NCBI GenBank assembly: GCA_020348925.1
Contig: CP070758.1
Location: 4,045,688 to 4,109,687, forward strand
Source of the DNA: Gemmatimonadota bacterium
GTDB lineage: Bacteria > JBHIER01 > G020348925
Direction of reading: 5' to 3'
DNA length: 64,000 nt
Part shown: positions 5,389 to 34,710 of the stretch, one piece after another
How positions within the stretch are numbered: the stretch's first letter is position 1
Layout of the letters: each line of letters opens with the position of its first letter
Made by a program: the position numbers and the translations under genes
Notes under the pieces: model-generated
What the model saw: only the letters and a program-made list of their open reading frames with translations
The model's database searches: none
Told to the model about the DNA's origin: nothing

Positions 5389-6372
5389 GTGAAAAGTATG
5401 ATCTGTATCCTTACGATTACTCTCTTGGTTTTATGGGGATGTATACCTGATGCTGAACGTGACAATCCTTTTGATCCGAAATCTGACGGATATCGCGATG
5501 AGGGTGTGTTGACAGGAACGATTACAAGAAGAGCACAGCCTTCAGAAGGTATTGAAGGGGTGCTCGTGACGCTCGATCCTCCTCAGGGGAGTGAGACAAC
5601 CGATAGAGATGGTTTTTTCACTATGGACAACATACCCTCAGGAAACTATGTTGTGACTGCTTTTAAAACGGGTTATTCTCAGGACTCAGCCAGCGTTCAA
5701 ATAATCGCCGGGCAACGAGATACCGTCCATCTTGCCCTCAATGGCGTGCCCCACTTTTCAAAAACCCGCGTTACGTCCGAGCACAACAAATCCTTTACTG
5801 GCGACGACGTCTATTTTTTTCACTTCGATGCCCAAGTGGAGGACGCTGATGGACTCTCCGACATCGATTCGGTTGCCGTCACCGTTGACGATCTCGAATT
5901 TTACAAACATCTCATTCGTGAGTCAAATACCAATCGGTTTTCGGTCACAATTTTTCCGGAGGAGATATCTGAGACATCTCTTGAAGCATTGGTGGGAAAA
6001 GAAACCATTTTTATCGTTACCGATAGAAACAGTTTCAAGACCGAATCCGATCCCCAGTATCTTGTCCGGATCATCCATCAATCACCCTCAACGGTCTCCC
6101 CTGCTGACAGAGATCAGGTTGATCCCCAACCCCTTCTTGTCTGGAATCAATTCTCCGCCCCTTTTGCATACACGTACTCGGTTGAGATCAGCGCCTTCCC
6201 TTCCGTGTGGTCCTGGTCTCGGGAAGGCATCTTGCCCTCGGACACAAGCATAACTGTGAACGACACCCTGGACAGTCGGTGGTCATACTTCTGGCTCGTG
6301 TCGATCGTTGATGAATACGGCAATTTCAGCCAGTCTCCACGTGTCGAGTTTTTTGTCACTGGGAGACGCTAA
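5389..6372 (+). CDS. Lipoprotein with carboxypeptidase-regulatory-like (Ig) domains
   Basis: Hydrophobic leader with LWGC lipobox, then CxPDAERDNPFDP; Ig-like TTDRDGFF..NIPSGNYVVTA.KTGY; start GTG 5389 or ATG 5398. Confidence 0.75.
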   Translation: MKSMICILTITLLVLWGCIPDAERDNPFDPKSDGYRDEGVLTGTITRRAQPSEGIEGVLVTLDPPQGSETTDRDGFFTMDNIPSGNYVVTAFKTGYSQDSASVQIIAGQRDTVHLALNGVPHFSKTRVTSEHNKSFTGDDVYFFHFDAQVEDADGLSDIDSVAVTVDDLEFYKHLIRESNTNRFSVTIFPEEISETSLEALVGKETIFIVTDRNSFKTESDPQYLVRIIHQSPSTVSPADRDQVDPQPLLVWNQFSAPFAYTYSVEISAFPSVWSWSREGILPSDTSITVNDTLDSRWSYFWLVSIVDEYGNFSQSPRVEFFVTGRR

Positions 6373-7848
6373 ATGGAGTATCCCCTACCCATGGAGAAAA
6401 ACCACCTCGACGCACTATTAGCCATCAGCCAAGAGATCAACTCGATCCAAAAAATTGATCCCTTATTGACCACCGTCATGGACAGGGCGATGCAGGCCTT
6501 ACAGGCTGAACGAGGATTTCTTATTTTGCGTGACAGTGATTCGGGTGACATGGCTGTAAAAATTGCTCGGAACATTTCAGATGAATCGATCAAAGACACA
6601 ACTGAGATTTCAACCAGTGTTGTCCAATCCATTCTCAAGAACGGACAACCTGTTCTCACCCACGATGCCCAGGAGGATCCGAGATTTAAAGGCTCTGAAA
6701 GCGTCGTCTTTCATGGAATTCTGTCAGTGGCGTGCGTCCCCCTGCGCATCAAAGAACAACTCATAGGGTGTATCTATGTCGACAGCCGAAGTCAACGCCG
6801 TATGTTCACGCAGGAAAGTCTCGCGTTTCTCACCGCCTTTGCCAACCAGGCAGCCATTGCAATAGAGAATGCTCAATTGTATGAGAAACTGCGAGCTGAA
6901 AACATCAGACTCAAAAAAGAGGTTCGGGAAAAATTTCGATTTGAGGGCATTATCGGCCAAAGCAGCAAGATGCGCCAAATCTTGGACATCGTCGAAAGAA
7001 TTTCAGACTCCGATGTCTCCGTGCTGATTCAGGGTGAAAGCGGTACGGGCAAGGAACTCATAGCCCGGGCTATACATTATAACGGCAGTCGAAAAGAAGG
7101 TCCCTTCGTTGCCCAATATTGTGGCGCCCTCACTGAGACGCTTCTTGAAAGCGAACTCTTCGGGCATAAGAAGGGTTCCTTCACAGGAGCGGCAGAGGAC
7201 AAAAAAGGGCTTTTCGAGGCGGCCGACAATGGAACATTTTTCCTCGATGAAATCGGTGATATCAGCCCGAACATTCAGACGAAACTGCTCCGCGTACTCC
7301 AAGAGGGCGAAATCAAGCGCGTCGGAGAAACACAAACCCGTCGTGTTGATGTGCGCATCATCTCCGCCTCCAACAAAGATCTTGCACATGAGGTGAAAAA
7401 AGGGCTTTTTCGTGAGGATCTCTATTATCGTTTGAACGTGATATCCATCCACATGCCCCCCTTGCGCGAACGCAAAGAGGACATCCCACTTTTAACCCAG
7501 CACTTTTTTGAAAAATATTGTCACACGAGCGGAAAACCCATCGAAAGGATTGCTTCGAAAACCATGGATACACTTTTAACGTATCACTGGCCGGGGAATG
7601 TGAGAGAGCTCGAGAACACCATCGAGCGTGCCATTGTTCTGGCCAGAGGCAGCACTATTCGAAGCGAAGATCTGCATATTCCTAAGTCCATCGACTATAC
7701 GAATGAAGCGCAGACGCTCAGAGACGTGGAACGAAATTTCGTTTTAAAAGTGCTGGACGAATGTGACGGGAATAAAACGAAAGCCGCCAAAAGACTCGGT
7801 GTTTCACTTCGATGGCTCCATTACAGATTGCGAGAGTGGGAACAATGA
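6373..7848 (+). CDS. GAF-domain sigma54-dependent transcriptional activator (bEBP, Fis HTH)
   Basis: N-terminal GAF; GESGTGKE, ESELFGH, GSFTGA, FLDEIG, FREDLYYRLNV, WPGNVRELEN; C-terminal GNKTKAAKRLGVS. Confidence 0.95.
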   Translation: MEYPLPMEKNHLDALLAISQEINSIQKIDPLLTTVMDRAMQALQAERGFLILRDSDSGDMAVKIARNISDESIKDTTEISTSVVQSILKNGQPVLTHDAQEDPRFKGSESVVFHGILSVACVPLRIKEQLIGCIYVDSRSQRRMFTQESLAFLTAFANQAAIAIENAQLYEKLRAENIRLKKEVREKFRFEGIIGQSSKMRQILDIVERISDSDVSVLIQGESGTGKELIARAIHYNGSRKEGPFVAQYCGALTETLLESELFGHKKGSFTGAAEDKKGLFEAADNGTFFLDEIGDISPNIQTKLLRVLQEGEIKRVGETQTRRVDVRIISASNKDLAHEVKKGLFREDLYYRLNVISIHMPPLRERKEDIPLLTQHFFEKYCHTSGKPIERIASKTMDTLLTYHWPGNVRELENTIERAIVLARGSTIRSEDLHIPKSIDYTNEAQTLRDVERNFVLKVLDECDGNKTKAAKRLGVSLRWLHYRLREWEQ

Positions 7849-9545
7849 TGGATCGCATCGACCAATTTGAACTTATTGCGGAGCTCTCTCGAAGCAGCAC
7901 AACCACCGTTTTCAAGGCGTATCAGAGCACTCTTGAACGGTTTGTCCTGTTAAAGCAGCTCCATCCGCATCTGACACGGGAAGAAGATATCGTTCGACGA
8001 TTCGAACGGGAAGCAAAAGCAGCGGCCCGCATCAAACACGAACATATCGTAGATGTGTACGACTATGGGAAGTGGCAAGATGTGTATTACATTGCCATGG
8101 AGTTCGTCGATGGTATCACCTTGAAAACCATCATAGATCGCGATGGACCTCTGCCACCTGAAATCGCCGCGACTATTTTACGAGGCACGCTGAAAGGCTT
8201 GGCTCATGCCCATTCGAAAGGGGTGTTCCACCGCGACATGAAACCGGCAAACATCCTTGTCTCAACACAGGGCGTGGTCAAGATAACCGATTTCGGTCTG
8301 GCCCTGATCACTGATTACCCTTCGATTACGGCCCAGGACGGAGTCGTCGGAACACCGGCCTATATGTCTCCCGAGCAAGCCAGCGGTGATGAGATAGACG
8401 GTCGGTCGGACATTTTTTCCTTGGGACTGACCTTCTTCGAAATGCTGGCAGGACGACGGGCATACGAGGGAGACTCCTTCTCCGCCTGCATCACACAACT
8501 GTTAACGGAAGACCCTCCAAAAATCAGAGACATCCGAAAAGACGTACCCCTCGACGTGGCAGACGTTTTGGAAAAAATGGTCACAAAATCGGTTTCGAAA
8601 CGGTATCAAACGTGCGATGAAATATTGGAGGACATACATCGTTGTTCGAGTTTGCCAGAACAACTCGTCGGTAAGGAAGATCTGGCAGCCTATATCTCTT
8701 CTCCGCACAAAGGTCAGATCGTCGTAACGTCTCCCGCATCAAAACGGAGGCTGTCTAAAACGCGCCTTGCCGTAATCGGAATCGTTTGTATCTCCTTAGT
8801 CGCCCTTATCGCTGGCGGATTGATCCTGTTTCCAAAGGGCTCCGAAGACAGAACAGAAGAGCCTTTCACCTTTCACACCCCCGAAATTGAGGAACCGTCT
8901 CAAAACGAAGAACCGGACACAACGACTCCGACGCTCCCACAGGTTCAGACAATCACACAAGAAATGCCGCAAACCGGTCAAGAAAAGCCACCCGAGCAGT
9001 CTGCGACGGAAACCACTCCTGCTGGGATGGATACGGTGGAGATAGCCCCGAATGGGTTGAGAGAACATCAATTCGAAGAGCCCCCCCTCCAAGAGCAACC
9101 GCTGGAAACCGGATATGGTACGTTGGAGATCAATTGCCTCCCGTGGGCCGACGTGTACATCGACGATCGCTATATCGACACGACACCACTTCAAAATGAT
9201 ATCTCTCTGGAAATCGGGTCCCATAAAGTTGCCTTGGTCAATCCCGATTTCCCTCCCTATTTTGAAAATGTCGAAATCGAATCCAACCAACGGACACGAA
9301 TCGATGTCTCATTACTCACGAAGGTGGGCTTTCTCGATGTCAACGTCCATCCCTGGGCAACCGTAATCCTGGATGAAGATTCCATTGATACAACGCCCTT
9401 GGCAAAACCGATCATGTTGCGCGCCGGCACTCATACCCTTCGATTGGCAAATCCGCGCTTTGGAGTGTTCGAGGAGAAAATAGGGATCGTCGCAAGTGAA
9501 ACCCTGAGGGTGAACCGGAATTTAACGGAACTTTTCATCGAATAG
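7845..9545 (+). CDS. Membrane Ser/Thr protein kinase with C-terminal PEGA-like repeats
   Basis: RFEREA, HRDMKPAN, DFG, GTPAYMSPEQ, DIFSLG; one TM helix, Pro/Thr/Glu linker, two PWAxV.....TTPL repeats; ATGA overlap with the bEBP stop. Confidence 0.92.
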   Translation: MMDRIDQFELIAELSRSSTTTVFKAYQSTLERFVLLKQLHPHLTREEDIVRRFEREAKAAARIKHEHIVDVYDYGKWQDVYYIAMEFVDGITLKTIIDRDGPLPPEIAATILRGTLKGLAHAHSKGVFHRDMKPANILVSTQGVVKITDFGLALITDYPSITAQDGVVGTPAYMSPEQASGDEIDGRSDIFSLGLTFFEMLAGRRAYEGDSFSACITQLLTEDPPKIRDIRKDVPLDVADVLEKMVTKSVSKRYQTCDEILEDIHRCSSLPEQLVGKEDLAAYISSPHKGQIVVTSPASKRRLSKTRLAVIGIVCISLVALIAGGLILFPKGSEDRTEEPFTFHTPEIEEPSQNEEPDTTTPTLPQVQTITQEMPQTGQEKPPEQSATETTPAGMDTVEIAPNGLREHQFEEPPLQEQPLETGYGTLEINCLPWADVYIDDRYIDTTPLQNDISLEIGSHKVALVNPDFPPYFENVEIESNQRTRIDVSLLTKVGFLDVNVHPWATVILDEDSIDTTPLAKPIMLRAGTHTLRLANPRFGVFEEKIGIVASETLRVNRNLTELFIE

Positions 9546-9678
9546 TCAAAATTAGATACAGTGAAATACCCTGCTGTCCATCATTTCTGAAGATTTTCAA
9601 AACCATCACGGAAATTCAATTTGTGAAGAGGTACGATTAAGTTTTCATAAAACTACAACACCAGTATCTATCACTGCG

Positions 9679-10515
9679 ATGCACTTCTTTTCAAGGCAAT
9701 TCAACAATCGAGTTCTTATTCTCCCAATCTTTCTGATGATTGTGATCTGGTGTCCCGTCCATTGCCAGGAGGAGACGCGGGAAAGCATAGACAAGATCAT
9801 AGAAGCATATACACAATTTCAGTTCACTGACGTGATAACGTTAGCCCATCAAGCCCTCACAACCGATCCGCCACCATCGGAAGAAATCCGTGTTCAGATA
9901 TATACGTACCTTGGTTTTGCCTATACCGCTCTGGGAGAAAACGACAAGGCCAAAGAGAATTTCGAGGAAGCCCTCACTTTGGACCCTTCCCTCACCCTTG
10001 ATCCAATCTATGTTTCCCCAAAGATCATTGCCATTTTCAGCGAGGCGAAGGCGGCTGTTGAAACGAGCCAAGAAAAAATCGAAAGAGAGCCCGTGCAGCC
10101 TTTTCCAATCAGCATCACAAAAGATAAGCGATCCGGAGGGGCCTGGAGATCGCTCCTTGTCCCAGGATGGGGACAACTGTATAAAGGACAAAAACAGAAG
10201 GCCTTGGCAATTTTTACTGTGCACACGATCAACCTCGGCGCAACGCTCTATTTGCACTTGAAAATGGAAGACGCGCACGACGAATATCGGCGTGCGAGAG
10301 ATCCCGTCACTATCGAAGCGACGTACGATCGATACAACTCGTATCACAAAAAAAGAAATTACCTCCTAATTTTCACTGCGCTTGTTTGGATATCCTCTCA
10401 CATCGACGCCGCCGTCAGTCAACCGAAATCAGATGTGAGTGACGGAAAGAGTACTTCGTTCATTCCCGAAATAACCCCCACTTCATTCAATCTCACATGT
10501 TCCATTCGTTTTTAA
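9679..10515 (+). CDS. Exported TPR protein with DUF5683-like C-terminal region
   Basis: Signal peptide; TPR YLGFAY..LGE..KA...FEEAL.LDP; AWRSLLVPGWGQLYKG motif; C-terminal Phe. Confidence 0.75.
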   Translation: MHFFSRQFNNRVLILPIFLMIVIWCPVHCQEETRESIDKIIEAYTQFQFTDVITLAHQALTTDPPPSEEIRVQIYTYLGFAYTALGENDKAKENFEEALTLDPSLTLDPIYVSPKIIAIFSEAKAAVETSQEKIEREPVQPFPISITKDKRSGGAWRSLLVPGWGQLYKGQKQKALAIFTVHTINLGATLYLHLKMEDAHDEYRRARDPVTIEATYDRYNSYHKKRNYLLIFTALVWISSHIDAAVSQPKSDVSDGKSTSFIPEITPTSFNLTCSIRF

Positions 10516-10688
10516 AGAGTGACAGGATCTCCAGTTCACGCATTTTTTGCAGTTTTCCCGTGAAAATGTTGCACAGTATCGTTTTTACCAGCATCTCTGT
10601 CTCATTTCTGACTGTGTGTATATCAATACAAATACTTGTTAATTATTTAATTATATTTTTTTTCATTATTTTTGCCAGCACATTGGCG

Positions 10689-10705
10689 TAGGCACACAAA
10701 TTGCG
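10689..10705 (+). promoter_or_regulatory. Sigma54 (-24/-12) promoter
   Basis: TAGGCACACAAATTGCG has GG-N10-GC and is close to TGGCACG-N4-TTGC; about 45 nt before ATG 10750 and downstream of a bEBP operon. Confidence 0.75.
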
Positions 10706-10749: not shown

Positions 10750-13700
10750 ATGACAACACTGCCTTTCACACAATCACCTGCGACTGCGGCTCTCAGACGA
10801 TGTTTCGTACAATCATCTCTGATTCCGTTTCTCATGTGTCTCATCGTACTCTTCGGCGTAAGGAGAGCAACCGCGTCAACTGGTGAGTGGACTCTCCAAC
10901 GGTCCGTACCATACGATATCGATGTGATTCGTGATGTCTCTTTCACCCACGACGGGCGCACCGGCTGGATTGTCGGATACAGTCAATATGGCCGTGACCA
11001 TTTCGGTTCGACTATTTTAAAAACGACTGATGGAGGCACGACATGGTCGGAACGAGAGGTCGGTTTACCGAACATCAACGAAGCAATTCACTTCGTCGAT
11101 GAATCCCACGGTTGGATCGTTGGGAGCAGGGGGGGAATTGCAGTGAGTACTGACGGGGGTGCCCTTTGGACTGCTCAATCCAGCGGTACCGATGCACGCC
11201 TGAAAGATATTTATTGTATCAACGACACCCTTGGCTGGGCTGTTGGGGAGTACACGATTTTATATACTTCGAACGGTGGCCAATTATGGCAAGGAGCCGG
11301 AATCAGTTACGGACCACGATTCAATGCCGTGACGTTCCAAACAGAAAAAAACGGTTGGGTCGTAGGAAATGGTGGTATAATACTCCACACTGCGGATGGG
11401 GGAAGTACCTGGACGTCCGTCTCCAGCCCGACAGCTGAAGATCTTTCTGATATCGCTTTTGTCAACCAGACAAAAGGATGGGCGGTTGGAAAAAACGGGG
11501 TCATCCTTGTGACAGAAGATGGTGGTGCCACATGGGTGAACCAGCAAAGCGGCACAAATCGGTCGCTCCAAGCTCTTTCGTTTTCAGACGTCCAAACAGG
11601 CTGGGTCGCAGGATCCGGCGGTACGACCCTTCACACGACTGACGGTGGCAAGACATGGACCAAAATTTCCGTTCCTGCCAACGCAAACCTCTATGCCGTG
11701 CATTTCTCTGAAGAACACCGCGGCTGGGTTTTCGGGGCGGGTGGTGTTTTCCTTCATACTGAGGATAACGGGATAACCTGGAACCCTATCATGAACGGAC
11801 CCAATGCCAATTTAACGGGCGTCTCTTTCGTCGACTCGAAAAACGGTTGGGCCTGCGGCTGGAACGGTACCATTCTTCACACGGAAGATGGTGGCAGAAA
11901 TTGGAGAACCCAGCGCTGCGGTCTGGATGCACTTCTCATGGGGATTGATTTTGTTCATATCGGTAAAGGGTGGATCATCTCGTATGAAGGGGGAATGCTC
12001 AAAACTGAGAACGGAGGAGAACAATGGTCCTCAATCCAAGCACCGGCTGGCACATTTCGAAATCTCGATTATGTCGATGAAGACAATATCTGGGTCGTAG
12101 GTGAACATAACAATCTCGGAACCATCTTCCACGGACTATCTGATGGTGCGGAATGGTATATTGAAGCTCAAGTCCCTATAGGGGGACCGTTGTTCGATAT
12201 CCAATTTGCCGACAGAAACAGAGGATGGGCTGTGGGAACCGGTGGAGCCATATTACACACTTCGAACGCGGGTGAAACGTGGACGCAACAGATCTCCGGA
12301 ATTGACGAGGACCTGAACCAAATTCAAGCTGTCAACCACGCTGTTGCATGGGCCTCGGGAAACTTCGACAATCTCCTCGTCACTGAAAATGGTGGCGAGG
12401 ACTGGAACATCGTTCAACTCGATCCGGACTACACTTACGGGTCGATCACTTTCCAAAACCTTCAACAGGGATGGGTCGTGGGAAGATCAAAGACCGACGG
12501 TTCGGTCGTCATTTTTTCGACGAGGGATGGAGGAAATTCGTGGGAAAGCACCCCCATGGCAGTGAAAGAAGGATTTCAGGCCACCAATTTTGTAAGTCTA
12601 TACGAGGGATGGTCCGTGGGAGAGAAAGGAACGGTTTGGTATTACGCGGATAAAACTGGTTTTATATTTCACTCTCTGTCCGGATATGTGTCCTATTGTG
12701 AAAATTTGAAACCGATTCCGAATGTCACATTGAACCTTTCAGGTTACACGACAGATACTGGAAATACGGATGAGGACGGTACGTTTCGGTTCGACGGTCT
12801 ACGTCAAGGTCGAACTTTCTGTCTCGAAGCCCACATGGTCGGTGCCTCCAAACAGGTCATCACCTCTTATGACGCGTCCCTGGTACTGAGCAGCCTGGTT
12901 GGACAATATACTCTCAGTCCATGCGATTCAATAGCTGCGGATGTCACAGGAAACAATCAGGTCTCGGCCTTAGATGTATCCGCCATCTTGCGATATGTCG
13001 TCGGTTTGGAAACCGAGGAATTAACCGGAAATTGGAATTTTTTCCCTCAGCAATTCTGCTATACCGACCTCCCCTCCGACCAGTCGGATTTACTCTTCGA
13101 AGGGATCATCTATGGTGATGTCAGTCAAAACTGGCCAGGCATTCGCGATACGAATGTGCCGGACATTACTGTCAGCCTTCCTCATACCGGAGCAGCAGCA
13201 GGAACCGATTTTGTCATTCTCACTTTTGCATCCTCCATTTCGGACTCCATTGACATCTTCTCATATCAAGCGCAGATAGATTACGATCCTTCACTTCTGC
13301 AAATCGTTGCACTTTCCGACACCGGACTTGTCCCTGATGGCTGGGGTCAGATGGTGTATCGTATCGACAACAATAACGGACATCTTTTTACTGCCAAAGC
13401 AGCAAGTTTCCCTCTTCAATGGAACGGAAGTCCATCTGCGCCATTGATGAGAATCCATATGCGTGTCAATTCGCACGCCTCATCCGGAGCTACCAGTCCC
13501 TTAACATTGGCATCGATGATTTTTAATGAAGGCTATCCCTGGGCAGAAACCCAGGACGGGTTTTTTCAAGTATTGAAGCACACAATTTCGGGGACAGTCA
13601 CTTACTGTTCGACAGCGATTGAAATCCCCAGCGTTGAACTCTCCTTATCCGGGGACGATACCTTGAACGCAACAACAGGTGAAAGTGGCTGGTATGGATT

Positions 13701-15762: not shown

Positions 15763-15953
15763 GAACAAGAATTCATGGTTTCGGAGAAAGTGGATATCGC
15801 TGAGCGGGTCCTAAGAAGAGATGACAGTCTTGTCACATGAAAGAATGCTACCCTCCTTCATGTCCCTCTTTCATAAAATGCCTGCCAGCGATATCCTAAT
15901 GAAATCAATCGAAAAATTTTGAACACACGACAGATAGGAAGTGAGGAGGTCAC

Positions 15954-17111: not shown

Positions 17112-17337
17112 GTAAAGGAGAAGATTTTTTCAGTTTTTTTCAGACCTTTCGTCTCAATGCTCTCACGAAGTCACTGAGAGTCGGTTTGTATTCGAGTCCG
17201 TTTGGTGGTGAGGGAAACATGACAGGCAAGGGGCTCACACCATCGAATCTGCACCAGACTGCCAGTAACTTCCCTCGGTACGCTTCCCGGGCGCGTTTTG
17301 CATAGCAGACACTTTTGCCCACAAGGGGGTGCGGGGC

Positions 17338-23157: not shown

Positions 23158-23165
23158 GTATAGAG

Positions 23166-23195
23166 GAGGGGGCAATCCTGCCGGGTTGCCCCCTC
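23166..23195. repeat. GC-rich hairpin, copy 1 (terminator or REP-like)
   Basis: GAGGGGGCAA-TCCTGCCGGG-TTGCCCCCTC; near-identical copy at 24301-24340. Confidence 0.75.
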
Positions 23196-24300: not shown

Positions 24301-24340
24301 GTATAGAGGGGGGGCAATCCTGCCGGGTTGCCCCCTCTAC
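24301..24340. repeat. GC-rich hairpin, copy 2
   Basis: GTATAGAGGGGGGGCAATCCTGCCGGGTTGCCCCCTCTAC. Confidence 0.75.
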
Positions 24341-25846: not shown

Positions 25847-27070
25847 ATGCTTGACCATGACAGCACAAACAAGAATCTGAAAATGTATCGAAATTACTTC
25901 ATCATCGGCATAACACTCATTTCACTGGTTCCCATACTTTTCCGCGGCGCAGCGGGCCAGGTTACTCTTATTGGACGATACGATACCCCAGGATGGGCCT
26001 ATAAAGTTGCTGTAAGGGGAAACTACGCATACGTGGCTGATTGGAGTTCCGTGCAGATCATCGATATCTCCGACCCGACCTCGCCTTCCCTGGTAGGAAA
26101 CTATGATGCTCCAAGAGTGTATGCCTACGATGTAGCAGTCTCCGATTCCTATGCGTATGTGGCGAGTGGTTATTCTGGTCTTCTCATTCTTGATATTTCG
26201 AATCCATGCTCCCCGACCCTTGTTGGAAGCGTTGGTACTTCTGATGAGGCTGTTGGTGTGGCAGTACTCGGAGACTATGCCTATGTGGCTTCCAGATTTT
26301 CCGGCCTTCACATCATCGATATATCAAACCCGGCTTCACCTTTCAGAACAGGAAGTTATAGATGTTATATCTCCGCTGTTGCTGTGACCGGCAACTATGC
26401 TTTTTTAGGTGATCGCCCCCATGGACTTACGATCTTGGATATCTCCGACCCAACCTCACCTTCTCTGGTGGTCAGAGGCTTCGGTTCCTGCGGCCACATC
26501 GAGCGTGTAGTCGTCATAGGCGATTATGCGTATGTGGTCGATTTTGGATGCCATCTTCAAATTGTAGATATTTCCAACCTAACCTCCCCATTTTTAGTCG
26601 GTTACCACTCCAACCAACTTGGCGGTGCCTGGGACGTGGCTGTCAAGGATGAATATGCATACGTAGCCTATGGGTACGATACAGGCGGTATTTTGCGAAT
26701 TGTGAACATATCTCATCCGGCTTCACCCACCCTCGTCTGGGAATACGATACCCCTGATTGGGCGTGCGGTGTATGTGTGGATGAAAATTACATTTACTTG
26801 GTCGACAAGCATCTCGGACTAAATATTCTGGAGTTCATATGTGAAGATAACGTAAAGGGAAACGTCAATAACGATTGCGTCGTGGATGCTGCAGACCTCA
26901 TTCGGACAGTGAACATTATTCTGAAGACCGGTCCAGATCCAACGTCGCATGAATTGTGGGCTGCCGATGGCAATGGTCTTCCAGGTAAGTGCGATGGCGA
27001 TGAGGTGATTAATGTGTTAGATATTGTAAAAATTGTAAGATTGATTTTGAATTTGGAGAAATGTCCATAA
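25847..27070 (+). CDS. LVIVD-repeat protein with C-terminal dockerin-like domain, no CTD
   Basis: About 7 V.V.G.YAYVA...GL.I.DISNP.SP.LVG repeats; GNVNNDCVVDAADL and DGDEVINVLDIV EF-hand-like loops; alternative start 25883. Confidence 0.85.
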   Translation: MLDHDSTNKNLKMYRNYFIIGITLISLVPILFRGAAGQVTLIGRYDTPGWAYKVAVRGNYAYVADWSSVQIIDISDPTSPSLVGNYDAPRVYAYDVAVSDSYAYVASGYSGLLILDISNPCSPTLVGSVGTSDEAVGVAVLGDYAYVASRFSGLHIIDISNPASPFRTGSYRCYISAVAVTGNYAFLGDRPHGLTILDISDPTSPSLVVRGFGSCGHIERVVVIGDYAYVVDFGCHLQIVDISNLTSPFLVGYHSNQLGGAWDVAVKDEYAYVAYGYDTGGILRIVNISHPASPTLVWEYDTPDWACGVCVDENYIYLVDKHLGLNILEFICEDNVKGNVNNDCVVDAADLIRTVNIILKTGPDPTSHELWAADGNGLPGKCDGDEVINVLDIVKIVRLILNLEKCP

Positions 27071-27102
27071 TTAACTCCATCCGTATCGAAGGAGGATTAG
27101 CT

Positions 27103-29289
27103 ATGAAGTACCTCGCATGTATTATTAGCCTTCTGGTGTTTTTGAGTACCTTGATAGTCCTATCACATGCACAGCATTCGGAATGGATTATTTACAATGA
27201 GAAAATGGCCGGGATTCCTAATGATGACATTCTATGCCTGCACACCGATAACTTAGGAATCACATGGGTTGGAACCTCAGGGGGCCTGGCTATCTTTAAT
27301 GGCAGAACCTGGTCTGTGTATAATTCGTATAACTCCGAACTCCCTGAGGATCATGTCACCTCTCTGGCCACCGATCGCTACGGGAATCCATGGATTGGGA
27401 CGATGGGAGGAGGACTGGCAATCCTCCGAGGAGTCAGTTGGACGGTTTACAACACATCCAACTCTGGGTTATCCAGTAACGACGTGGAGTCTCTCACCAT
27501 AAGTGAATCGGGTATAGCGTGGATTGGAACATATGGAAAAGGACTGGTCAGATACGACGGTCTGACGTGGACCGTCTATAACAGTTACAATTCCGGACTG
27601 CCGAGCGATTGGATCACGTGCCTGACTATTGATTGTTCTGAGAACCTGTGGATTGGAACCTCAAGCGGCCTGGCTCGATTTGATGGCACAACATGGACCC
27701 TCTATAACACATCCAATTCAGGCCTACCGGCAAACTATATCGAATCGCTGACCTTCGACAGCTCTGGGAATGCATGGATCGGTACGTGGGGAAAGGGCCT
27801 GGCTCTGTTCAACGGAACTTCCTGGAACGTATACAACACGGCGAATTCGGGAATACAGCATAACACAATCTATTGTGTGGCAAAGGACGACTCTGGTGCT
27901 ATTTGGATGGGAACGTGGGGAGGCGGACTGGTCAAATTTGACGACGATACATGGACGAACTACAACACGAAAAACTCGGGGCTGCCCAATGATTTTGTTC
28001 TTACTCTCGCTGTGGACAAAGCCGGAAACATATGGTCAGGAACCTGGGGAAGAGGATTGGTGGAATTCGATGGATCGAACTGGTGGCTCTATAGCACGAG
28101 TACACGACTCCCCAGCGACAACATTTGGGCCCTTGCTCCTACTCCATCGGGAGAGATCTGGATAGGGACAAGAGCCGGATTGGCCAGATTTTATGGAAAG
28201 AATTGGACGGCATACAACGAGGCAAATTCCGGACTTCCCGATGATTTCATCTACTCACTTGCCAGCGATGATTCGTGCGCCGTGTGGATTGGCACACAAG
28301 ATGGTGGATTAGCCAAGTTTGATGGCATGAATTGGAACGTTTACAACAGAGGGAACTCGGAATTGCCTCACAACAACGTCAAAGCCCTTGCCATCGACGG
28401 ATCAGGCGACATTTGGATTGGGACTTGGGGAGGAGGACTGGCCAAATTCGATGGACAGAGCTGGGACGTTTACACCCGTGGGTCCTTCAGTCTTCCAACC
28501 AATTACATCCGCGCCGTAGCCACAGACGAGTCCGGACAGGTTTGGGTTGGGACGAGCTACGGATTAGCTCTCTTTAACGGATCCTATTGGACAACATATT
28601 TCACATCAAATTCACCACTACCATCGGACGAGGTGCTTTCTTTAGTTACGGACCGTTCGGGAGATATATGGATTGGCACATCCGAGGGCGTAGCTACATA
28701 TGATGGCAAAACATGGAGGGTTTACAAAGAAGCCAATTCGAGTACAGCACTCATCAATGTTTACTCCCTTGCGGTCGACAGCACCGGGAATATTTGGATC
28801 GGTACCCAAGGTGGTGTGGCGAAATTTAACGGAACTGATTGGGTGGTTTTCAAAAAGAGCAACTCCGAGTTGCCCAATAACTATGTCTACGCTCTTGCTA
28901 TCGGCGACTCCGGTAAGGTATTCATCGGAACCCCGGGCGGACTGGCGATGTATCGTGAAGGCGGGGTACTTTCCGTGGAGGGATTTAATACAGCTCAGCC
29001 TGCCCAATGTGGTCTCTCTCAAAACTATCCCAATCCCTTCAATATACAGACAGATATTAGATATCAGATATTTGATGGCGGATTCCCCCTACACACTACC
29101 CTTAAAATTTATAACATCCTCGGCCAGGAGGTACGAACATTAGTGGATGAAACGCAGATGCCTGGACAGTACAATGTTTTCTGGGACGGTTTGGATAACA
29201 ATGGTATCCAGATGTCCAGCGGACCCTATTTCTATCGATTACGATCACATTCTTTTTCAGAAACGAAGGGAATGATTTTACTAAAATGA
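27103..29289 (+). CDS. Two-component-regulator-propeller (PorZ-like) repeat protein with CTD
   Basis: About 14 repeats of NSGLP.N.I..LA.D.SG.IWIGT..GLA.FDG..W..YN; CTD; GGAGG RBS. Confidence 0.88.
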   Translation: MKYLACIISLLVFLSTLIVLSHAQHSEWIIYNEKMAGIPNDDILCLHTDNLGITWVGTSGGLAIFNGRTWSVYNSYNSELPEDHVTSLATDRYGNPWIGTMGGGLAILRGVSWTVYNTSNSGLSSNDVESLTISESGIAWIGTYGKGLVRYDGLTWTVYNSYNSGLPSDWITCLTIDCSENLWIGTSSGLARFDGTTWTLYNTSNSGLPANYIESLTFDSSGNAWIGTWGKGLALFNGTSWNVYNTANSGIQHNTIYCVAKDDSGAIWMGTWGGGLVKFDDDTWTNYNTKNSGLPNDFVLTLAVDKAGNIWSGTWGRGLVEFDGSNWWLYSTSTRLPSDNIWALAPTPSGEIWIGTRAGLARFYGKNWTAYNEANSGLPDDFIYSLASDDSCAVWIGTQDGGLAKFDGMNWNVYNRGNSELPHNNVKALAIDGSGDIWIGTWGGGLAKFDGQSWDVYTRGSFSLPTNYIRAVATDESGQVWVGTSYGLALFNGSYWTTYFTSNSPLPSDEVLSLVTDRSGDIWIGTSEGVATYDGKTWRVYKEANSSTALINVYSLAVDSTGNIWIGTQGGVAKFNGTDWVVFKKSNSELPNNYVYALAIGDSGKVFIGTPGGLAMYREGGVLSVEGFNTAQPAQCGLSQNYPNPFNIQTDIRYQIFDGGFPLHTTLKIYNILGQEVRTLVDETQMPGQYNVFWDGLDNNGIQMSSGPYFYRLRSHSFSETKGMILLK

Positions 29290-29372: not shown

Positions 29373-31625
29373 ATGAGAACAAATGGTGCACTCATAGTAT
29401 TTTGCTTATTTCTCTATGGTTTAACTTCAACGACGTTACTGTCACATCACGATATTCTGGGGCCGGGGAGAACACCTCATGATCTCGATGCCAAAAGGAT
29501 CAGTGGAAAGGGAAGGAAGGGGTTGGCCGCAGCATATTCCTCGGGAGCTGGATCAGCTGGAGTCTGGGGATCTCCGGACATGAGAGACACAGTCACCTGG
29601 CGTTCAATTGAGGAGCCGGACGTCAATTTCGGTTTTCACAATCCAGGTGATTCCCTCTTGGTCTGGTTAAAGCCCGCTGCAGCCTGCAGTCTCATCGCCA
29701 TTCGATTCTACGTGATGAATTGGGAGGGAGGTACACTTTTTGACGTGTGGGATGCTAGCAGATATGATCCTAAGGTTTCGTCTCACGACAGCGTCGATGC
29801 AAACGGTTGGATCGGAACGTTCGAGCCGATCACAAATCCAGCAGGTTGGATCTCTGGGCTGTGGGATAACTCACCCTTAGGCTGGAGTGCCAAAGACCCT
29901 GAACACCATTACTGGGGACCGTTTCCTTTCACCATAACCAGGGCTCATACGCAGGCGTGGACCGAGATTCCCACCGCCTATGGGCTCCAGGGGGAAGTGG
30001 ATCTGGGCAGAGACCCTTTTTACGTCAGCACCGTTTTTTATCAAAAAGCAGGGTGGGGATTTGGCACCGAATATCCCTGGAGAACGCCCTACACCTTTTT
30101 CAAATTCTATACAGCCGGCACTGGCCCAGACGGAATACATGACGGCTGGTTTATCCGCTCGTACTTCATGTGGTTTGAAGCGATTGTTACATATTATGAG
30201 AATACTCCTCCCACGTTCCGTGATCTGAAGATCCAGAACTATACCTACGGTCCAGGTCCTTTCCCTATTACGGTCACCATTACTGACAGAGACGCAGAAG
30301 ATGAGACCAGAGCCGGTGTTGCCACTGCCGAGCTTGTCTATGATATCAACGGAATCATTGACAGAACAACCATGGAAGGACCTGCGGTAGGAGGTCTCTT
30401 CAATGCACATATACCTGAACTGGCCACACAGGATGTCGTCACCTATTGGGTTGAAGCCACTGATTTCCACAACGCCTCGTCCCAATCGAGAACCGTCACC
30501 TTTGCCAGACTCGAGCCGGAACATCCGGCTACGGATCTCCTCATCGTTTGGGATGATGTACGGTATGAGAAATTGGATACATTCTTCGTCGATTTGTTTG
30601 CCAGTTTAGAACCCCGGTTGCAGTTTGAAGTATGGAACGTCCAGAAGCGAAACGGTATCGATGCCAGTGTGATCAATTGGGGTTGGAATACTATCTACAT
30701 CTCTGGCTGGGAATGCAGACACACACTCCCAGGTCGAGATTATTCCGGGAATCTCTTTGCCGAATGGCTCGAAGCTGGCACCAAAGAGGAGCCACGCAAT
30801 CTCCTCTACATAGACCAGGATTACTTTTGTGCTCACGAAGAATACGGTTGCGACTGGGATGAGACCAAAGAAGAATTGGCACCTGGTGATTTCATGTACG
30901 ATTATTTTGGGGTCATTGGAGCCGTCAGCGACAATCACGGATCCGACGAAGAAGATTACGATAGTGTGGCCATCGGTCTAGGAGATTTTGAAGATATTCG
31001 AATCAATTTTAAGCAGGACCTCTGGGACCCGGCTTGGTCGGAGAGGAACATATATCCCGATTGGATCGTGGACGTGACAGACGACGCAGAATATATATTC
31101 AAATATGCGGACCCTCCCGGCGGTTCGGGCTTTGGAGCTGGTGTACGCCTTGATCGAGAAAAGTACAGAACCGTCTATATCCCTTGGCAGGACTACTTCA
31201 CCGTGGATTCTTTGGAGAACGGTGATCTGGTGCCGAGGCCGGATCTTGTGGACATGTATGCCAGGATTCTGGAATGGTTTTGGCACTGGCCAACACCCGA
31301 AACTCTCAGTTGTGATGACGAATTTATGGGCACTGTAAAAGGTTTTCAGTTGGTCCAAAACTACCCCAATCCATTTAATTCGACGACAGATATTAGATAT
31401 CAGATAATAGATACAGGATTGCCAATCCCAACGACCCTAAAGATTTTCAACATCCTTGGTCAAGAAGTGCGGACGCTGGTAGATGAGGAGCAAACATCAG
31501 GGCAGTATACCGTGACGTGGGACAGGCGGGACATTAATGGGCTCAATGTATCCAGTGGCCTCTATCTCTATCGTTTGACATCCGGACATTTCGCAGATAC
31601 GAAGAGGATGATCCTTTTAAAATGA
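29373..31625 (+). CDS. Paralogue 6 (long form)
   Basis: Family domain, Ig, NLLYIDQDYFC domain, CTD. Confidence 0.85.
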   Translation: MRTNGALIVFCLFLYGLTSTTLLSHHDILGPGRTPHDLDAKRISGKGRKGLAAAYSSGAGSAGVWGSPDMRDTVTWRSIEEPDVNFGFHNPGDSLLVWLKPAAACSLIAIRFYVMNWEGGTLFDVWDASRYDPKVSSHDSVDANGWIGTFEPITNPAGWISGLWDNSPLGWSAKDPEHHYWGPFPFTITRAHTQAWTEIPTAYGLQGEVDLGRDPFYVSTVFYQKAGWGFGTEYPWRTPYTFFKFYTAGTGPDGIHDGWFIRSYFMWFEAIVTYYENTPPTFRDLKIQNYTYGPGPFPITVTITDRDAEDETRAGVATAELVYDINGIIDRTTMEGPAVGGLFNAHIPELATQDVVTYWVEATDFHNASSQSRTVTFARLEPEHPATDLLIVWDDVRYEKLDTFFVDLFASLEPRLQFEVWNVQKRNGIDASVINWGWNTIYISGWECRHTLPGRDYSGNLFAEWLEAGTKEEPRNLLYIDQDYFCAHEEYGCDWDETKEELAPGDFMYDYFGVIGAVSDNHGSDEEDYDSVAIGLGDFEDIRINFKQDLWDPAWSERNIYPDWIVDVTDDAEYIFKYADPPGGSGFGAGVRLDREKYRTVYIPWQDYFTVDSLENGDLVPRPDLVDMYARILEWFWHWPTPETLSCDDEFMGTVKGFQLVQNYPNPFNSTTDIRYQIIDTGLPIPTTLKIFNILGQEVRTLVDEEQTSGQYTVTWDRRDINGLNVSSGLYLYRLTSGHFADTKRMILLK

Positions 31626-31663
31626 CTATATGTAGGAAGATTGATTTTCAAAGGAAGGATGCG

Positions 31664-33901
31664 ATGAGAAAAGCGGTCATAGTCGTCTTGATATGTTTGG
31701 TGTCATACGTGCTAACTACCGTTGCTTTCGCCCCGGAGTATGACATTCTGAGGCCGGGTGGGACACACAAAGACCCCGATGTGAAATCAATCGGGTCGGT
31801 CAAACAAAAAATAATGGCTACAGAGGGAATTTTTCGAAATGACCCTGATAGACCTGTTGGATCGCACGGCATTGTCGACACCATAACCTGGCGCTCAAAG
31901 AGACAACCCGATATCAACTTCGGTTTTCTCGATCCCGGTGATTCCCTGCTGGTCTGGTTCGAACCGCAGGCAGCCTGCAGTTTGGTTGCTGTTCGATTCT
32001 ATATCGTAAATTATCATGGAAAAATACTCATCGATGTATATGATGGGAGCAAGTACAATCCGAAGATCTACTCGCTGGACAGCGTTGATGCCAACGGATG
32101 GATCGGAACATTTGATCCGATTACAGATCCTGGAAACTGGGTTCCAGGACTCTGGGACCACTCCCCCCTGGGATGGAATCCCTTGGATTCGGAACACTAC
32201 TTTGGGCGTTTTTTCACATTCAATAATATTGGACCTTACGATAATTCATGGGTTGAGCTTCCCGTGAGCTCAGTGTACATAGGAAACGTGGACTTGGGTC
32301 GTAAACCATTTTTCATCACTTCCCCTTTCTACCATGTCTCAGGATGGGGATTCGGTGCCGAATATCCCTGGACGACCCCCTACAACTTCTTCAAGTTCTA
32401 TTCGGCCGGCACCGGCCCGGATGGAGTCCATGACGGCTGGTTCATCCGCTCTTATTTCATATGGTTTGAAGCCGTGGTCAATTATTACGAAAATACACCT
32501 CCCAGCATCAAGAGTATGAAGGTTCAGAACGATACATACGATCCGGGTCCCTTTTCAATCACTGCAACTATTACTGACAACGATGCTGAGGACGCGACGA
32601 GGGCCGGCGTGGCTTCAGCAATGCTTGTGTACGATATCAACGGTACGGTGGATAAATTCAGCATGGAAGGTTCTCCGGAAGGAGGCCTCTTCAGGGCGGA
32701 GATCCCTGAACTGGCAACAGGAGATGTTGTCACCTATTGGATCGAAGCGACCGATCTGGTCGGCGATGCGGCCCAGTCCAGTAAGGTCACTTTTACCAGA
32801 ACAGAGCCCGAACATCCCGAGGCGGATGTACTCATTATCTGGGACGATTGGAAGCGTCCTGATCTGGACACTTTCTGCGTTGACCTTTTCGATTTCATAA
32901 AAAATGAAAACGGGGAGATGTATGAGTTTGAAGTGTGGAATAACCGGAAACATCAGGGTATTGATGCGAGTGTCATCAATTGGGGGTGGAGAACCATCAT
33001 CGTTTCCGGATGGAATTGTAAACATACATTGCCTGGGCGGGATTATGCTGGTAACCCTTTCGTTGAATGGCTCGAAGCGGGTACAATTAATAATCCACAC
33101 AACCTGCTTTACATCGACCAGGACTACTTCTGCGCCCATCCGGAGTATGGCTGCGATTGGCAAGGAGCGTTGGCCCAAGGTGATTTTTTACACGACTACT
33201 TCGGGGTGATCGGGGCGGTGAGTGATAACTGCGGGTCAGACCGAGCCGGCTACGACAGCGTGGCCATCGGTGAAGGCGACTTTGCAGGCATCCAGATAAA
33301 CTTTCTTCCAAACGCATGGGATCCAACGTATCCTAAGTTAAATTTGTGGCCAGATAGACTCGTCGAGCTGACAGAGGATGCCGAGCAGATTTTTCACTAC
33401 AAAGATCACCCGGAATACGGAGCCGGGGTTCGTCTGGACAGAGGTCATTCGAAGACGGTCTATCTCCCCTGGCAGGACTTCTTCATCGTGGATTCGTTGG
33501 AGAACGGCGACCTGGTGCCAAGGCCGGATCTTGTGGAGATGTACGAGAGAATTCTTAAGTGGTTTGGAACATCAGTTTCCACGAGCACGGAAACAGAACT
33601 AAGTACCATGCCGATGCATTTTAACTTGAGTCAAAACTATCCCAATCCCTTCAATGCGACGACAGAAATCAGATATCAGATACCAGATAGTAGATCACCC
33701 ATCCATACTACCCTCCATATCTATGATATTTTGGGACGGAGAGTGAACGTTTTGATGGACGATGTGATGGAATCAGGACAGTACATTGTCTCTTGGGACG
33801 GAAAAAATGGGTTTGGAAAGGACGTAGCAAGTGGCATATATTTCTATCAACTTAAAGCTGGTAAATTTATCGCGACAAAACGAATGATTCTCCTCGAATA
33901 A
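31664..33901 (+). CDS. Paralogue 7 (long form)
   Basis: MRKAV signal peptide, family domain, Ig, NLLYIDQDYFC domain, CTD. Confidence 0.85.
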   Translation: MRKAVIVVLICLVSYVLTTVAFAPEYDILRPGGTHKDPDVKSIGSVKQKIMATEGIFRNDPDRPVGSHGIVDTITWRSKRQPDINFGFLDPGDSLLVWFEPQAACSLVAVRFYIVNYHGKILIDVYDGSKYNPKIYSLDSVDANGWIGTFDPITDPGNWVPGLWDHSPLGWNPLDSEHYFGRFFTFNNIGPYDNSWVELPVSSVYIGNVDLGRKPFFITSPFYHVSGWGFGAEYPWTTPYNFFKFYSAGTGPDGVHDGWFIRSYFIWFEAVVNYYENTPPSIKSMKVQNDTYDPGPFSITATITDNDAEDATRAGVASAMLVYDINGTVDKFSMEGSPEGGLFRAEIPELATGDVVTYWIEATDLVGDAAQSSKVTFTRTEPEHPEADVLIIWDDWKRPDLDTFCVDLFDFIKNENGEMYEFEVWNNRKHQGIDASVINWGWRTIIVSGWNCKHTLPGRDYAGNPFVEWLEAGTINNPHNLLYIDQDYFCAHPEYGCDWQGALAQGDFLHDYFGVIGAVSDNCGSDRAGYDSVAIGEGDFAGIQINFLPNAWDPTYPKLNLWPDRLVELTEDAEQIFHYKDHPEYGAGVRLDRGHSKTVYLPWQDFFIVDSLENGDLVPRPDLVEMYERILKWFGTSVSTSTETELSTMPMHFNLSQNYPNPFNATTEIRYQIPDSRSPIHTTLHIYDILGRRVNVLMDDVMESGQYIVSWDGKNGFGKDVASGIYFYQLKAGKFIATKRMILLE

Positions 33902-33994
33902 CAATTTGAGTGAACGAAATGTAAAAAATCTATGATTTCAAGGAAAGAATATTGTGGACAAGCCTAAAAAAAAGATTCAAAAGCAAACCAAAGG

Positions 33995-34710
33995 ATGGCT
34001 CTTGTATCTGTTAGCCCCACTACCCTGCCTCCCTGTTGTGATTTGTGCAACTGTTTCCAGTTTAGGGTTCTCAATGTCCGTGAAGGGACCTGTCTCTCAG
34101 TACCCGGATATCCGTCTTTCTGCGGATGGCTTACTATTTTCAGCAATGATCCAGACGAAGCGGACTCTTTGGAATGGGGCGTTGTATGGATTAATCACGC
34201 ATCTGATCAAACATTGACAATATATAACGACGGAGAGGGTATTTTACAAGTGAAAAAATATCTTCGAGTAATCACGAATTTACTGCTTCAGCTGAATCTC
34301 TCATTGTGGAGGGATCAGACTCGACAGATGTAATCATTAATTTTGTACCAGGATTTTTCTCAGATACCCCCCCTTTCCCATCAGATAGCGGATGGCTTAC
34401 TATTTTCAGCAATGATCCAGACGAAGAGGTGTTGCATGTGCATCTGCATGGTAGCAGATTTTATTGGGGTTTAAGAGGCGACGTCAACGGTGATGGTAAC
34501 ATAAACATACTGGATGCCTTGGTAGTAATCAATCATATCCTTGGCACTAACTTTATCACGGATAGTGCTGCTCAATGAAGGGCGGACTGTAATGCCGATG
34601 GGTCCATCGACGTTCTGGATGTTCTGGGTATCGTCAATGAGATTTTGGGCATTAGCCAGTGCGTGTGGCCAACGTGTAAGATAGGCTCGAGATCACTTTC
34701 AGGCAATTGA
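33995..34710 (+). pseudogene. Disrupted ASH + dockerin gene
   Basis: ASH-like QTLTIYNDGEGILQV; frameshift in the A-run near 34255; GDVNGDGNINILD, in-frame TGA 34576-34578, then RADCNADGSIDVLDV. Confidence 0.75.
34122..34426 (+). repeat. Exact 39-bp direct repeat (34122-34160 and 34388-34426)
   Basis: GCGGATGGCTTACTATTTTCAGCAATGATCCAGACGAAG occurs twice. Confidence 0.9.

Follow-up and report, generated by a model that had tools for sequence, protein, structure and literature searches.

A predicted kinase-sigma54 activator envelope module ahead of an adaptor scaffoldin-like protein and a row of T9SS-tailed surface proteins in a Gemmatimonadota genome

Given a row of genes in which cohesins, dockerins and secretion tails stand together behind a regulatory head, the question arises whether the products build one extracellular machine or a coat of separately anchored proteins, and what would switch them on. 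Such a row occupies positions 5389-34710 of the DNA analysed here (the window), a 64-kb stretch of the genome of a Gemmatimonadota bacterium (G000, a 5.04-Mb assembly that is 96% complete). Fifteen plus-strand open reading frames (ORFs) run from about 5368 to 33901 and are followed by a broken sixteenth, with no N gap in the assembly across the locus. A previous interpretation made from the letters alone (the sequence-only reading) had listed 15 genes and one dockerin pseudogene on one strand and proposed a single complex with interchangeable subunits, controlled by sigma54, non-catalytic, and exported by the secretion system of type IX (T9SS). ORF calls and Pfam domains agree with that gene content and order across the locus, and the cohesins, the predicted sigma54 control and T9SS export, the non-catalytic payload and part of the synteny stood up as well; the single complex with interchangeable subunits did not. 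We contend that the locus has two layers, an envelope-signal-induced sigma54 operon that would supply an adaptor scaffoldin together with separately anchored adhesin-like proteins, and we give this reading a probability of roughly 0.55. The comparisons below rely largely on G001, the sole same-family relative among the genomes compared, which belongs to a different (sister) genus.

The head of the locus consists of four genes, followed by the sites through which it may act:

5368..6372, plus strand: lipoprotein (module gene 1) with CarboxypepD_reg and further immunoglobulin (Ig)-like parts (Pfam); start uncertain (5293, 5368 or 5389)
6373..7848, plus strand: sigma54 activator, a bacterial enhancer-binding protein (bEBP), with GAF, Sigma54_activat and HTH_8 domains (module gene 2; Pfam)
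7812..9545, plus strand: Hanks-type Ser/Thr kinase (module gene 3) with Pkinase, one membrane helix and two PEGA domains (Pfam, module alignment)
9679..10515, plus strand: TPR-DUF5683 protein (module gene 4) with signal peptide, TPR, DUF5683 and a C-terminal strand ending in Phe (Pfam)
10539..10573, plus strand: predicted paired TGCA-N5-TGCA-like activator sites, 22 bp apart and about 130-150 bp upstream of the -24 box; 29 of 39 bases as in the sister genus
10622..10642, plus strand: AT-rich block between activator sites and promoter, conserved in G001
10690..10704, plus strand: sigma54 -24/-12 promoter, GG-N10-GC at 10691-10704, with no other strict match in the window; the sister genus shares 13 of its 15 bases

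The GG-N10-GC promoter of the sequence-only reading is the sole strict sigma54 box of the window, at 10691-10704, out of 39 in the whole genome, and two such palindromes lie upstream of only 3 of the 209 relaxed sigma54-like sites in G000. Four-fold sites of the flanking genes are identical between window and sister genus at only 25 of 73, 124 of 350 and 17 of 48 positions (34-35%), so that the conservation of the promoter and activator blocks reflects selection. A gene for sigma54 itself, rpoN, which the sequence-only reading had left to be confirmed, is present (TIGR02395, 446.7 bits against a cut-off of 277). On contig G001:C150 the order is the same from activator through kinase and TPR gene to the scaffold, inside which the contig stops, so that linkage of at least the 5' part is retained in the sister genus. 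Conserved sites and the presence of rpoN argue for sigma54 control of the scaffold gene, and the AT-rich block may have an IHF-like role.

The activator has the AAA+ domain, the GAFTGA-type loop and the helix-turn-helix of a bEBP, with the G(S/A)FTGA loop intact in 24 of 24 module homologues. Of the 22 G000 activators compared, it alone has the recognition-helix sequence of the module. The lipoprotein retains its Cys and an N-P-x-D-P motif, both invariant or almost so in 20 module homologues. Catalytic residues of the module kinases are invariant (Lys in 28/28; Glu, HRD Asp, DFG Asp and APE Glu in 29/29), and the glycine loop is degenerate in a module-specific way, Ser/Thr-rich or other residues replacing it in the window kinase and in module kinases L051-L185, unlike 16 of the 19 G000 kinases with an HRD motif. 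A 90-residue linker rich in Pro, Glu, Thr and Gln lies between membrane helix and PEGA domains; linker, helix and two PEGA domains would together be enough to span the periplasm. PEGA-DUF5683 fusion proteins form an Atlas cluster of 147, and CsgG/LpoB-DUF5683 fusions are also present. In the accessible part of a Porphyromonas vesicle proteome, a table includes a DUF5683 protein, its location given as unknown (PMC13744359). The terminal strand of the TPR-DUF5683 protein, the fusions and the vesicle listing suggest a relay from the outer envelope through PEGA and kinase to the GAF activator. As a separate observation, 25 G000 ORFs match the window kinase, and tandem Ser/Thr kinase clusters lie at G000:C1:658459-665985, 1119032-1134045 and 4843445-4853123.

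The head is not peculiar to this genome. We scanned 97 loci (80 metagenome loci, 15 GTDB regions and 2 G001 contigs), 87 of them with a TPR-DUF5683 label, and counted the 34 that have at least 6.5 kb upstream of that gene, leaving 53 shorter loci outside the count. Activator and kinase occur together in 22 of these 34, with the lipoprotein in 20 of the 22 and a Kelch propeller with T9SS tail in 14, and the activator-kinase pairing survives gene-order rearrangement in L175-L177 and L179. A T9SS-tail gene comes after the module at 10 of 20 loci, against 2 of 9 non-module loci. Within 350 bases after the module, metagenome loci show a strict sigma54 site in 4 of 11 (0.6 expected) and an activator site in 4 of 11 (1.2 expected); these loci helped shape the motif, and the count excludes three loci whose TPR gene lies within the module. 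The cargo that follows varies (DUF5666-tail, VIT/vWA-tail, DUF3160-tail and TPR/PIG-L genes), and no gene of the paralogue family described below was found in any of the 97 loci, so that head and payload are separable. In the module's Atlas clusters, Rhodothermota, Ignavibacteriota and Bacteroidota are the phyla most often recorded. Kinase and TPR genes usually have the Kelch-T9SS gene between them; it is missing here, where a 133-bp gap (9546-9678) shows no Kelch remnant, and G000 holds only this Kelch-less copy. From gene content we read the head as a four-gene remnant of a five-gene module spread across T9SS-bearing lineages, and as the conserved system of the locus.

Two observations concern other copies of the module. 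A protein of about 925 residues with repeated DUF5666 domains and a T9SS tail stands beside it in L062, L065 and L087, in two of them behind a sigma54 box. In L182 and L183 (G017:C1, G186:C1) the TPR-DUF5683 gene is followed by activator palindromes, a strict sigma54 box and several hundred bases with no long ORF; this ORF-poor stretch has short repeated words, and a sigma54-driven small RNA or short peptide is possible.

Whether the kinase really acts on the activator is a question of its own. GAF domains of NifA or FhlA sense a small molecule or a partner protein, and the activator here might do the same, leaving the kinase-PEGA protein, the TPR-DUF5683 protein and the lipoprotein to serve envelope assembly or cargo export. 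No FHA domain is found among the activator's Pfam matches, its best NCBIfam match is the NifA equivalog TIGR01817 (444.3 bits, below the cut-off of 528.85), and L182 and L183 keep TPR-DUF5683, activator sites and sigma54 box with neither kinase nor activator in the roughly 9.6 kb upstream. Set against this are the co-occurrence of activator and kinase in 22 of 34 loci, also after rearrangement, the intact kinase residues with their module-specific glycine loop, and the GAF serines S80 and S110, invariant in 23 of 23 module activators, which may be structural. We regard a kinase-independent activator as somewhat unlikely; it and our view of the payload can hold together.

The first two genes behind the promoter bear the cohesins:

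10750..15762, plus strand: adaptor scaffoldin-like protein of 1670 residues (Pfam, fold model), with a 62% identical orthologue in G001:C150
15954..17111, plus strand: protein with a single cohesin, an ASH-like Ig domain and a T9SS tail, a putative anchoring mini-scaffoldin; its Pfam cohesin match is weak and falls short of the cut-off (E 0.0075); the orthologue in G001:C300 is 49% identical

In the larger protein, Pfam finds PSII_BNR (YCF48), three cohesins, three dockerins, three CarboxypepD_reg stretches and the tail, in agreement with the three dockerin/cohesin units that had been proposed. Two YCF48-type propellers (10876-12645), which match only Ycf48-like structures (6 sequences), precede three units of an Ig domain with an inserted, permuted dockerin and a cohesin (12670-15402) and the T9SS tail. 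The stretch from cohesin 1 through Ig-dockerin 2 to cohesin 2 was modelled with a predicted local distance difference test (pLDDT) score of 90.3 (27 rows). The first cohesin of the model superposes on the cellulosomal cohesin 4uyp (Z 17.8, root-mean-square deviation (rmsd) 1.9, 134 residues aligned), which supports real cohesins, and the middle domain of the model, searched as a whole and not with the dockerin part by itself, resembles CnaB or transthyretin-like folds (Z about 10). The three dockerin helices sit inserted in the Ig domain and one Gly-Asp-Val-x-x-Asn loop follows, invariant in 27 rows, as are the Asp residues; we read the element as a permuted dockerin whose second Gly-Asp-Val-x-x-Asn loop has apparently moved C-terminal. 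Like a cellulosome scaffoldin the protein is non-catalytic and carries several (three) cohesins, and a branching adaptor scaffoldin is the description that fits it best.

Its possible partners are many. Pfam gives 81 cohesin matches in G000, 73 over the cut-off, and at least 148 dockerin matches among 150 scored of 527 candidates. Profiles built from G000 find 277 canonical dockerins on 276 ORFs and 154 cohesin-like domains on 86 ORFs. Ig-embedded dockerins number 25 on 21 ORFs, 19 of which also have cohesins, so that two dockerin types coexist, one on payloads and an Ig-associated one on scaffoldins. The window scaffold is the only G000 ORF with three Ig-dockerin/cohesin units. On the 21 ORFs of G000:C1, the layout of cohesin, Ig-embedded dockerin, reduced cohesin and T9SS tail recurs and seems to mark the lineage's scaffoldin-like proteins.

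The scaffold is followed by seven paralogues, which share a 210-residue N-terminal domain (N-domain) and the tail:

17329..19554, plus strand: paralogue 1, full-length, with jelly-roll N-domain, Ig, glutamine amidotransferase (GATase)-like domain and T9SS tail (alignment, model)
19567..20691, plus strand: paralogue 2, N-domain and tail only (alignment)
20878..23157, plus strand: paralogue 3, full-length (alignment)
23224..24300, plus strand: paralogue 4, N-domain and tail only (alignment)
24363..25820, plus strand: paralogue 5, N-domain, a different middle domain and tail (alignment)
29373..31625, plus strand: paralogue 6, full-length, the one that was modelled (model)
31622..33901, plus strand: paralogue 7, full-length (alignment)

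Four are full-length (741-759 residues), adding an Ig and an alpha/beta domain to the N-domain, and three are short (358-485 residues); apart from the tail they match no Pfam family. None of the seven carries a dockerin or cohesin and all seven have their own T9SS tail, so they cannot dock on the scaffold by that route, and it is on this point that the idea of interchangeable subunits of one complex fails.

The case for a single dedicated cohesin-dockerin assembly, with the paralogues as interchangeable scaffold subunits, draws on their co-location, on the conserved 5' order, on a conserved intergenic stem (described below) of the kind found in stoichiometry-controlled operons, and on family members elsewhere that do have dockerins (6 of 67) or cohesins (G000 1979748; P0019, P0084). 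Besides the lack of any plug on the window paralogues, it must face the fact that Ig-embedded dockerins are found on 21 ORFs, the scaffold being just one of these, in a genome with 86 cohesin-bearing ORFs, and that the module precedes other cargo elsewhere. We consider such an assembly very improbable. The dockerins on 6 of the 67 aligned members indicate that tail and dockerin are alternative anchors for the N-domain family, and with most cargo proteins lacking a plug for scaffold docking, the row of surface proteins probably amounts to an adhesive coat under common regulation, not to a single assembled machine.

The model of paralogue 6 (pLDDT 90.7, 67 rows) gave only low-TM multi-domain matches with Foldseek, and VIA-align resolved its separate domains. 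The N-domain is closest to the lectin-like domain of Cwp84 (Z 12.9, rmsd 2.8, 144 residues aligned, 7% identity), with phage baseplate domains within about 1 Z; its sequence profile has no match among PDB chains at E 1. It has many conserved Trp and Tyr and the conserved polar residues D25, D71, E130, K176 and R43. The Ig domain resembles the one in PPAD, a T9SS cargo (Z 11.4), and the third domain has a class I glutamine-amidotransferase-like fold (Z 14-15), with top matches that include GH42 and ThuA-like or GIFT-type domains, which we take to be non-catalytic.

Such folds invite the view that the paralogues are enzymes, their jelly-roll or GATase-like domain being a hydrolase or lyase that has escaped recognition, and that the locus is degradative: both folds include enzymes, and polar residues of the N-domain are conserved. 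At the putative nucleophile elbow of the GATase-like domain, placed by secondary structure, 43 of 53 sequences have Gln and none has Cys, and no His is conserved at 80%, which departs from class I GATase/PfpI enzymes. Moreover, three paralogues have no GATase-like domain, and no Pfam or NCBIfam enzyme family is matched, so that we hold a degradative role to be highly doubtful.

The family reaches beyond the window. G000 has 17 N-domain genes (10 outside the window) and G001 has 13 matches, and relatives occur in records named Calditrichota and FCB group. A narrow N-domain profile matched 0 of 39 genomes outside the host family. With a broader one, matches starting at or before position 253 appeared in 8 more of 400 sampled genomes; these are divergent and were judged partly by eye, and most of the 93 positive genomes had tail-only matches, 2 candidates per genome being scored. 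These eight genomes rule out a family restricted to two genera. Of two contig scans across genomes, the first was without a match and the second returned the two G001 loci only, and at least 2 of 51 library matches (P0032, P0049) look like repeat-protein false positives. In a tree the window paralogues do not group together (they require 5 changes, and 0% of bootstrap trees have only 1), and several are closer to other records (87% and 76% identity); they thus appear to be old, maintained variants, and a recent tandem burst is ruled out. A second tandem array of four N-domain genes lies at L008:7973-15696 (G000:C1:1975972-1983695), the last fused to Ig-dockerin and cohesin units, and L034 (G001:C543) has a family member with Ig and alpha/beta domains in tandem repeat.

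The remaining cargo comprises two propeller proteins and the broken last gene:

25847..27070, plus strand: LVIVD propeller with a C-terminal dockerin and no tail (Pfam dockerin E 0.0016, under the cut-off)
27061..29289, plus strand: Reg_prop double propeller with T9SS tail (Pfam), of PorZ-like architecture
33995..34710, plus strand: pseudogene with Ig-like remnants and a dockerin (34477-34647), with an upstream frameshift and an in-frame TGA at 34576-34578

The LVIVD propeller is the only intact dockerin-only protein of the locus. The Reg_prop protein scores 175.6 bits against PorZ (NF052228), below the cut-off of 260, and no G000 match exceeds that cut-off. The NPFN..WD..G.Y tail motif is present in 10 of the 11 cargo proteins, the LVIVD protein being the exception, in line with the ten tailed products first counted, and all 11 have a hydrophobic N-terminal stretch. 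When 6 tail-bearing window proteins were scanned with TIGR04183, 5 scored over its cut-off. SprA and PorU are over cut-off in the genome and PorV has 8 matches, which supplies the T9SS core genes (sprA, porU, porV) that the sequence-only reading had left to be looked for; with the tails and signal-peptide-like N-termini they support predicted T9SS export. No glycoside hydrolase or peptidase family is found in the 11 cargo proteins with Pfam and NCBIfam, nor any other enzyme family, which upholds the view of a non-catalytic payload. Dockerin-bearing polysaccharide-degrading enzymes of the cellulosome kind are thus absent within the locus; dockerin proteins elsewhere in the genome were only counted. 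G000 has 246 tail-bearing ORFs, and the 11 tagged genes in a row in the window equal the longest such run that its 437 tagged ORFs form. Such genome-wide abundance of tails, cohesins and dockerins makes the payload less surprising, and its tail density is not exceptional. Frameshift and in-frame TGA confirm the dockerin pseudogene, on which no recognisable signal peptide was found. Selenocysteine at its TGA is not favoured: the gene is frameshifted too, and aligned homologues have Cys, Ser or a gap, no search for a selenocysteine insertion sequence (SECIS) having been made.

How far one transcript would extend depends on what lies between the genes:

15792..15896, plus strand: conserved intergenic RNA stem, in which 17 bp of outer stem surround a block of 25 bases that does not differ between the two genera (folding z -5.9 and -4.4)
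17194..17275, plus strand: conserved intergenic block, 73% over 82 bases, with no folding excess over shuffles (z +1.5 and +1.3)
23166..23195, plus strand: G+C-rich hairpin without a T-run, first of two genome copies (z -4.7)
24308..24337, plus strand: second copy of this hairpin (repeat search)

The first stem has one compensatory pair and three one-sided changes, with two sequences only to compare, and no Rfam match. On G001:C300 a gene end with a scaffold-type tail is followed by the stem, next by the orthologue of the cohesin gene (49%) and then by a paralogue; this gene end has a 35-residue tail spacing that only the scaffold shares among 216 G000 tails. Stable intergenic stem-loops of the type known from the cip-cel operon, where RNA is selectively processed and stabilized (SRPS), are thus predicted here, and they probably set relative transcript levels. 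The 25-base block (15847-15871) has a pyrimidine run complementary to a ribosome-binding site and could pair with the cohesin gene start region. The intergenic element at 20692-20755 has a copy at G000:C1:482743 (81% over 58 bases) and weaker ones, and is possibly a small dispersed repeat.

Alternatively, the sigma54 promoter may drive only the first one to three cargo genes, the rest being a tandem pile-up of secreted-protein genes with their own promoters or terminators, of a kind seen all over this genome. The 437 tagged G000 ORFs often stand in runs of 6-11, the 10 further N-domain genes have no module beside them in the stretches examined, the paralogues do not form one clade, the last gene is decayed, and hairpins stand at 23166 and 24308. 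Against this, the window has no second strict sigma54 site, and several gaps are of only 12-83 bases or the genes overlap. Sigma70-like sites number 16 against 16.1 in shuffles at 4800-20000, hence no excess there, and 30 against 21.2 (standard deviation 5.1) at 20001-35100; terminator scans stay near shuffle levels. Three pairs of TPR and N-domain homologues come from records with equal longest contigs (37,448; 12,669; 17,526), a hint of linkage in other relatives. We judge this alternative unlikely. For the last five genes, the short gaps would favour co-transcription and the two strong hairpins disfavour it.

From these domains, model folds and gene order, and from the conservation of promoter and stem, we infer the signal path, phosphorylation target, binding partners, transcript length and ligand of the two-layer locus as follows. 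A surface or envelope cue would pass from the outer-membrane-associated TPR-DUF5683 protein and the lipoprotein to the PEGA domains, and the kinase would then switch on the GAF activator, which would bind the paired TGCA-N5-TGCA sites behind the module and fire the sigma54 promoter. A long transcript of T9SS cargo would be made. The scaffoldin would plug into the genome-wide cohesin-dockerin network through its three Ig-embedded dockerins, its three cohesins staying open to any of about 270 dockerin proteins, the LVIVD propeller included. The seven paralogues would be separately T9SS-anchored, lectin-like binding proteins, and the net function may be an inducible adhesive or ligand-capturing surface coat. 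A bolder version is that the head is a trans-envelope sigma54 signalling system, running from a surface propeller through DUF5683-TPR and the PEGA/Hanks kinase to a phosphorylated, FHA-less GAF activator, and that it drives a scaffoldin polymerising into a branched lattice with ratios set by RNA stems. In this system the YCF48 propellers of the first target possibly replace the Kelch surface propeller. We regard this version as doubtful.

Several points weigh against the two-layer reading. The activator lacks an FHA domain, and the kinase is tied to it by gene order alone. In the 8 GTDB loci that were not used for motif choice, strict promoter and activator site occur once each (0.5 expected), and a sigma54 box is found in 4 of the 8 only with the pattern relaxed afterwards; the activator site is above shuffles in non-module loci too (7 of 42, 3.1 expected). 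Close kinship among several of the 34 informative loci makes the counts overstate independence. The Kelch gene is absent from both the window copy and its G001 orthologue, a second G001 copy, L052 (G001:C216), having a Kelch-tail gene. At 23166 and 24308, the strong hairpins might stop a transcript short of the last five genes, and G001 has other N-domain family members in different contexts. Finally, at 7% identity and with phage baseplate domains in a near-tie, the lectin-like match shows the fold only.

The surroundings of the locus also deserve mention. A tRNA-Ala gene (5030-5106) and a tRNA-Leu gene (34832-34917), the latter with a perfect sigma70 promoter at 34792-34820, flank the cluster, and an Rfam scan gave tRNA-type matches only. 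A genomic island, which tRNA genes at the flanks might suggest, is ruled out, as G+C is not different and G001 shows synteny for the head. L013 (G000:C1:4027594-4034373), which lies just upstream of the window, encodes several secreted proteins with a common N-terminal 'ISFQGKL', beside dockerin and tail genes.

The kinase-activator head thus appears to be a widespread, apparently undescribed module that here would feed an adaptor scaffoldin and an unnamed adhesin-like family. In the literature searched, with most subscription journals outside its coverage, we found no report of an FHA-less sigma54 activator controlled directly by a membrane Ser/Thr kinase, nor of outer-membrane signalling by a DUF5683 protein. 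Given its spread over Rhodothermota, Ignavibacteriota and Bacteroidota clusters, the module may be testable in a cultured strain, and the conserved activator site allows regulon prediction genome by genome. If true, our reading of the head gives a function to DUF5683 and to kinase-borne PEGA domains; the payload contributes a family of T9SS cargo that has a good model but no name, and a permuted Ig-embedded dockerin by which a second tier of specificity may be set apart within a very large cohesin-dockerin network.

Among known systems, NifA-type activators share the GAF-AAA+-HTH order, the intact GAFTGA-type loop and paired palindromes 130-150 bp upstream. NifA is partnered by NifL, whereas the present activator, below the NifA cut-off, has a membrane Ser/Thr kinase, a lipoprotein and a TPR-DUF5683 protein as presumed partners and surface cargo as output. 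Enhancer-binding proteins with FHA domains were reportedly described in Myxococcus by Jelsbak in 2005, and Ser/Thr kinases are said to have been proposed as coupled to sigma54 activators; here there is no FHA domain, the PEGA domains of the kinase are periplasmic, and its gene stands together with genes for envelope proteins. FecA-FecR-FecI cell-surface signalling, which uses a TonB-dependent receptor, an anti-sigma and an extracytoplasmic function (ECF) sigma factor, may share the logic of outer-envelope cue, inner-membrane transducer and alternative sigma factor. The present head has none of these three components and would rely on a Hanks kinase and a sigma54 activator.

The clostridial and ruminococcal adaptor scaffoldins (4uyp, 6kgc, 5nrk) are alike in cohesin fold (Z 17-18) and in having two dockerin types. 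They carry X-dockerin modules, whereas the permuted dockerin here lies inside a CnaB/transthyretin-like domain of a protein predicted to be exported by T9SS in a diderm. In the cip-cel operon, according to the accessible part of the source, selective RNA processing and stabilization has been shown and stem-loops set subunit ratios (PMC4423207). Our locus is likewise scaffoldin-first with intergenic stem-loops; here these are predicted from sequence, and most genes do not encode scaffold subunits. The closest parallel in composition is Ca. Stygibacter (Cloacimonadota), for which, as far as the available text goes, a T9SS-tailed, cellulosome-like scaffoldin with dockerin proteins was proposed from genomes only (PMC8542988). 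Both are cohesin-bearing, end in a C-terminal sorting domain, are accompanied by dockerin proteins and belong to T9SS-type lineages; there the dockerins sit on hydrolases and the scaffoldin has carbohydrate-binding modules (PMC8542988). The present locus, with no catalytic domain, differs in the three Ig-embedded dockerins and YCF48 propellers of its scaffold and in the sigma54 module that stands in front.

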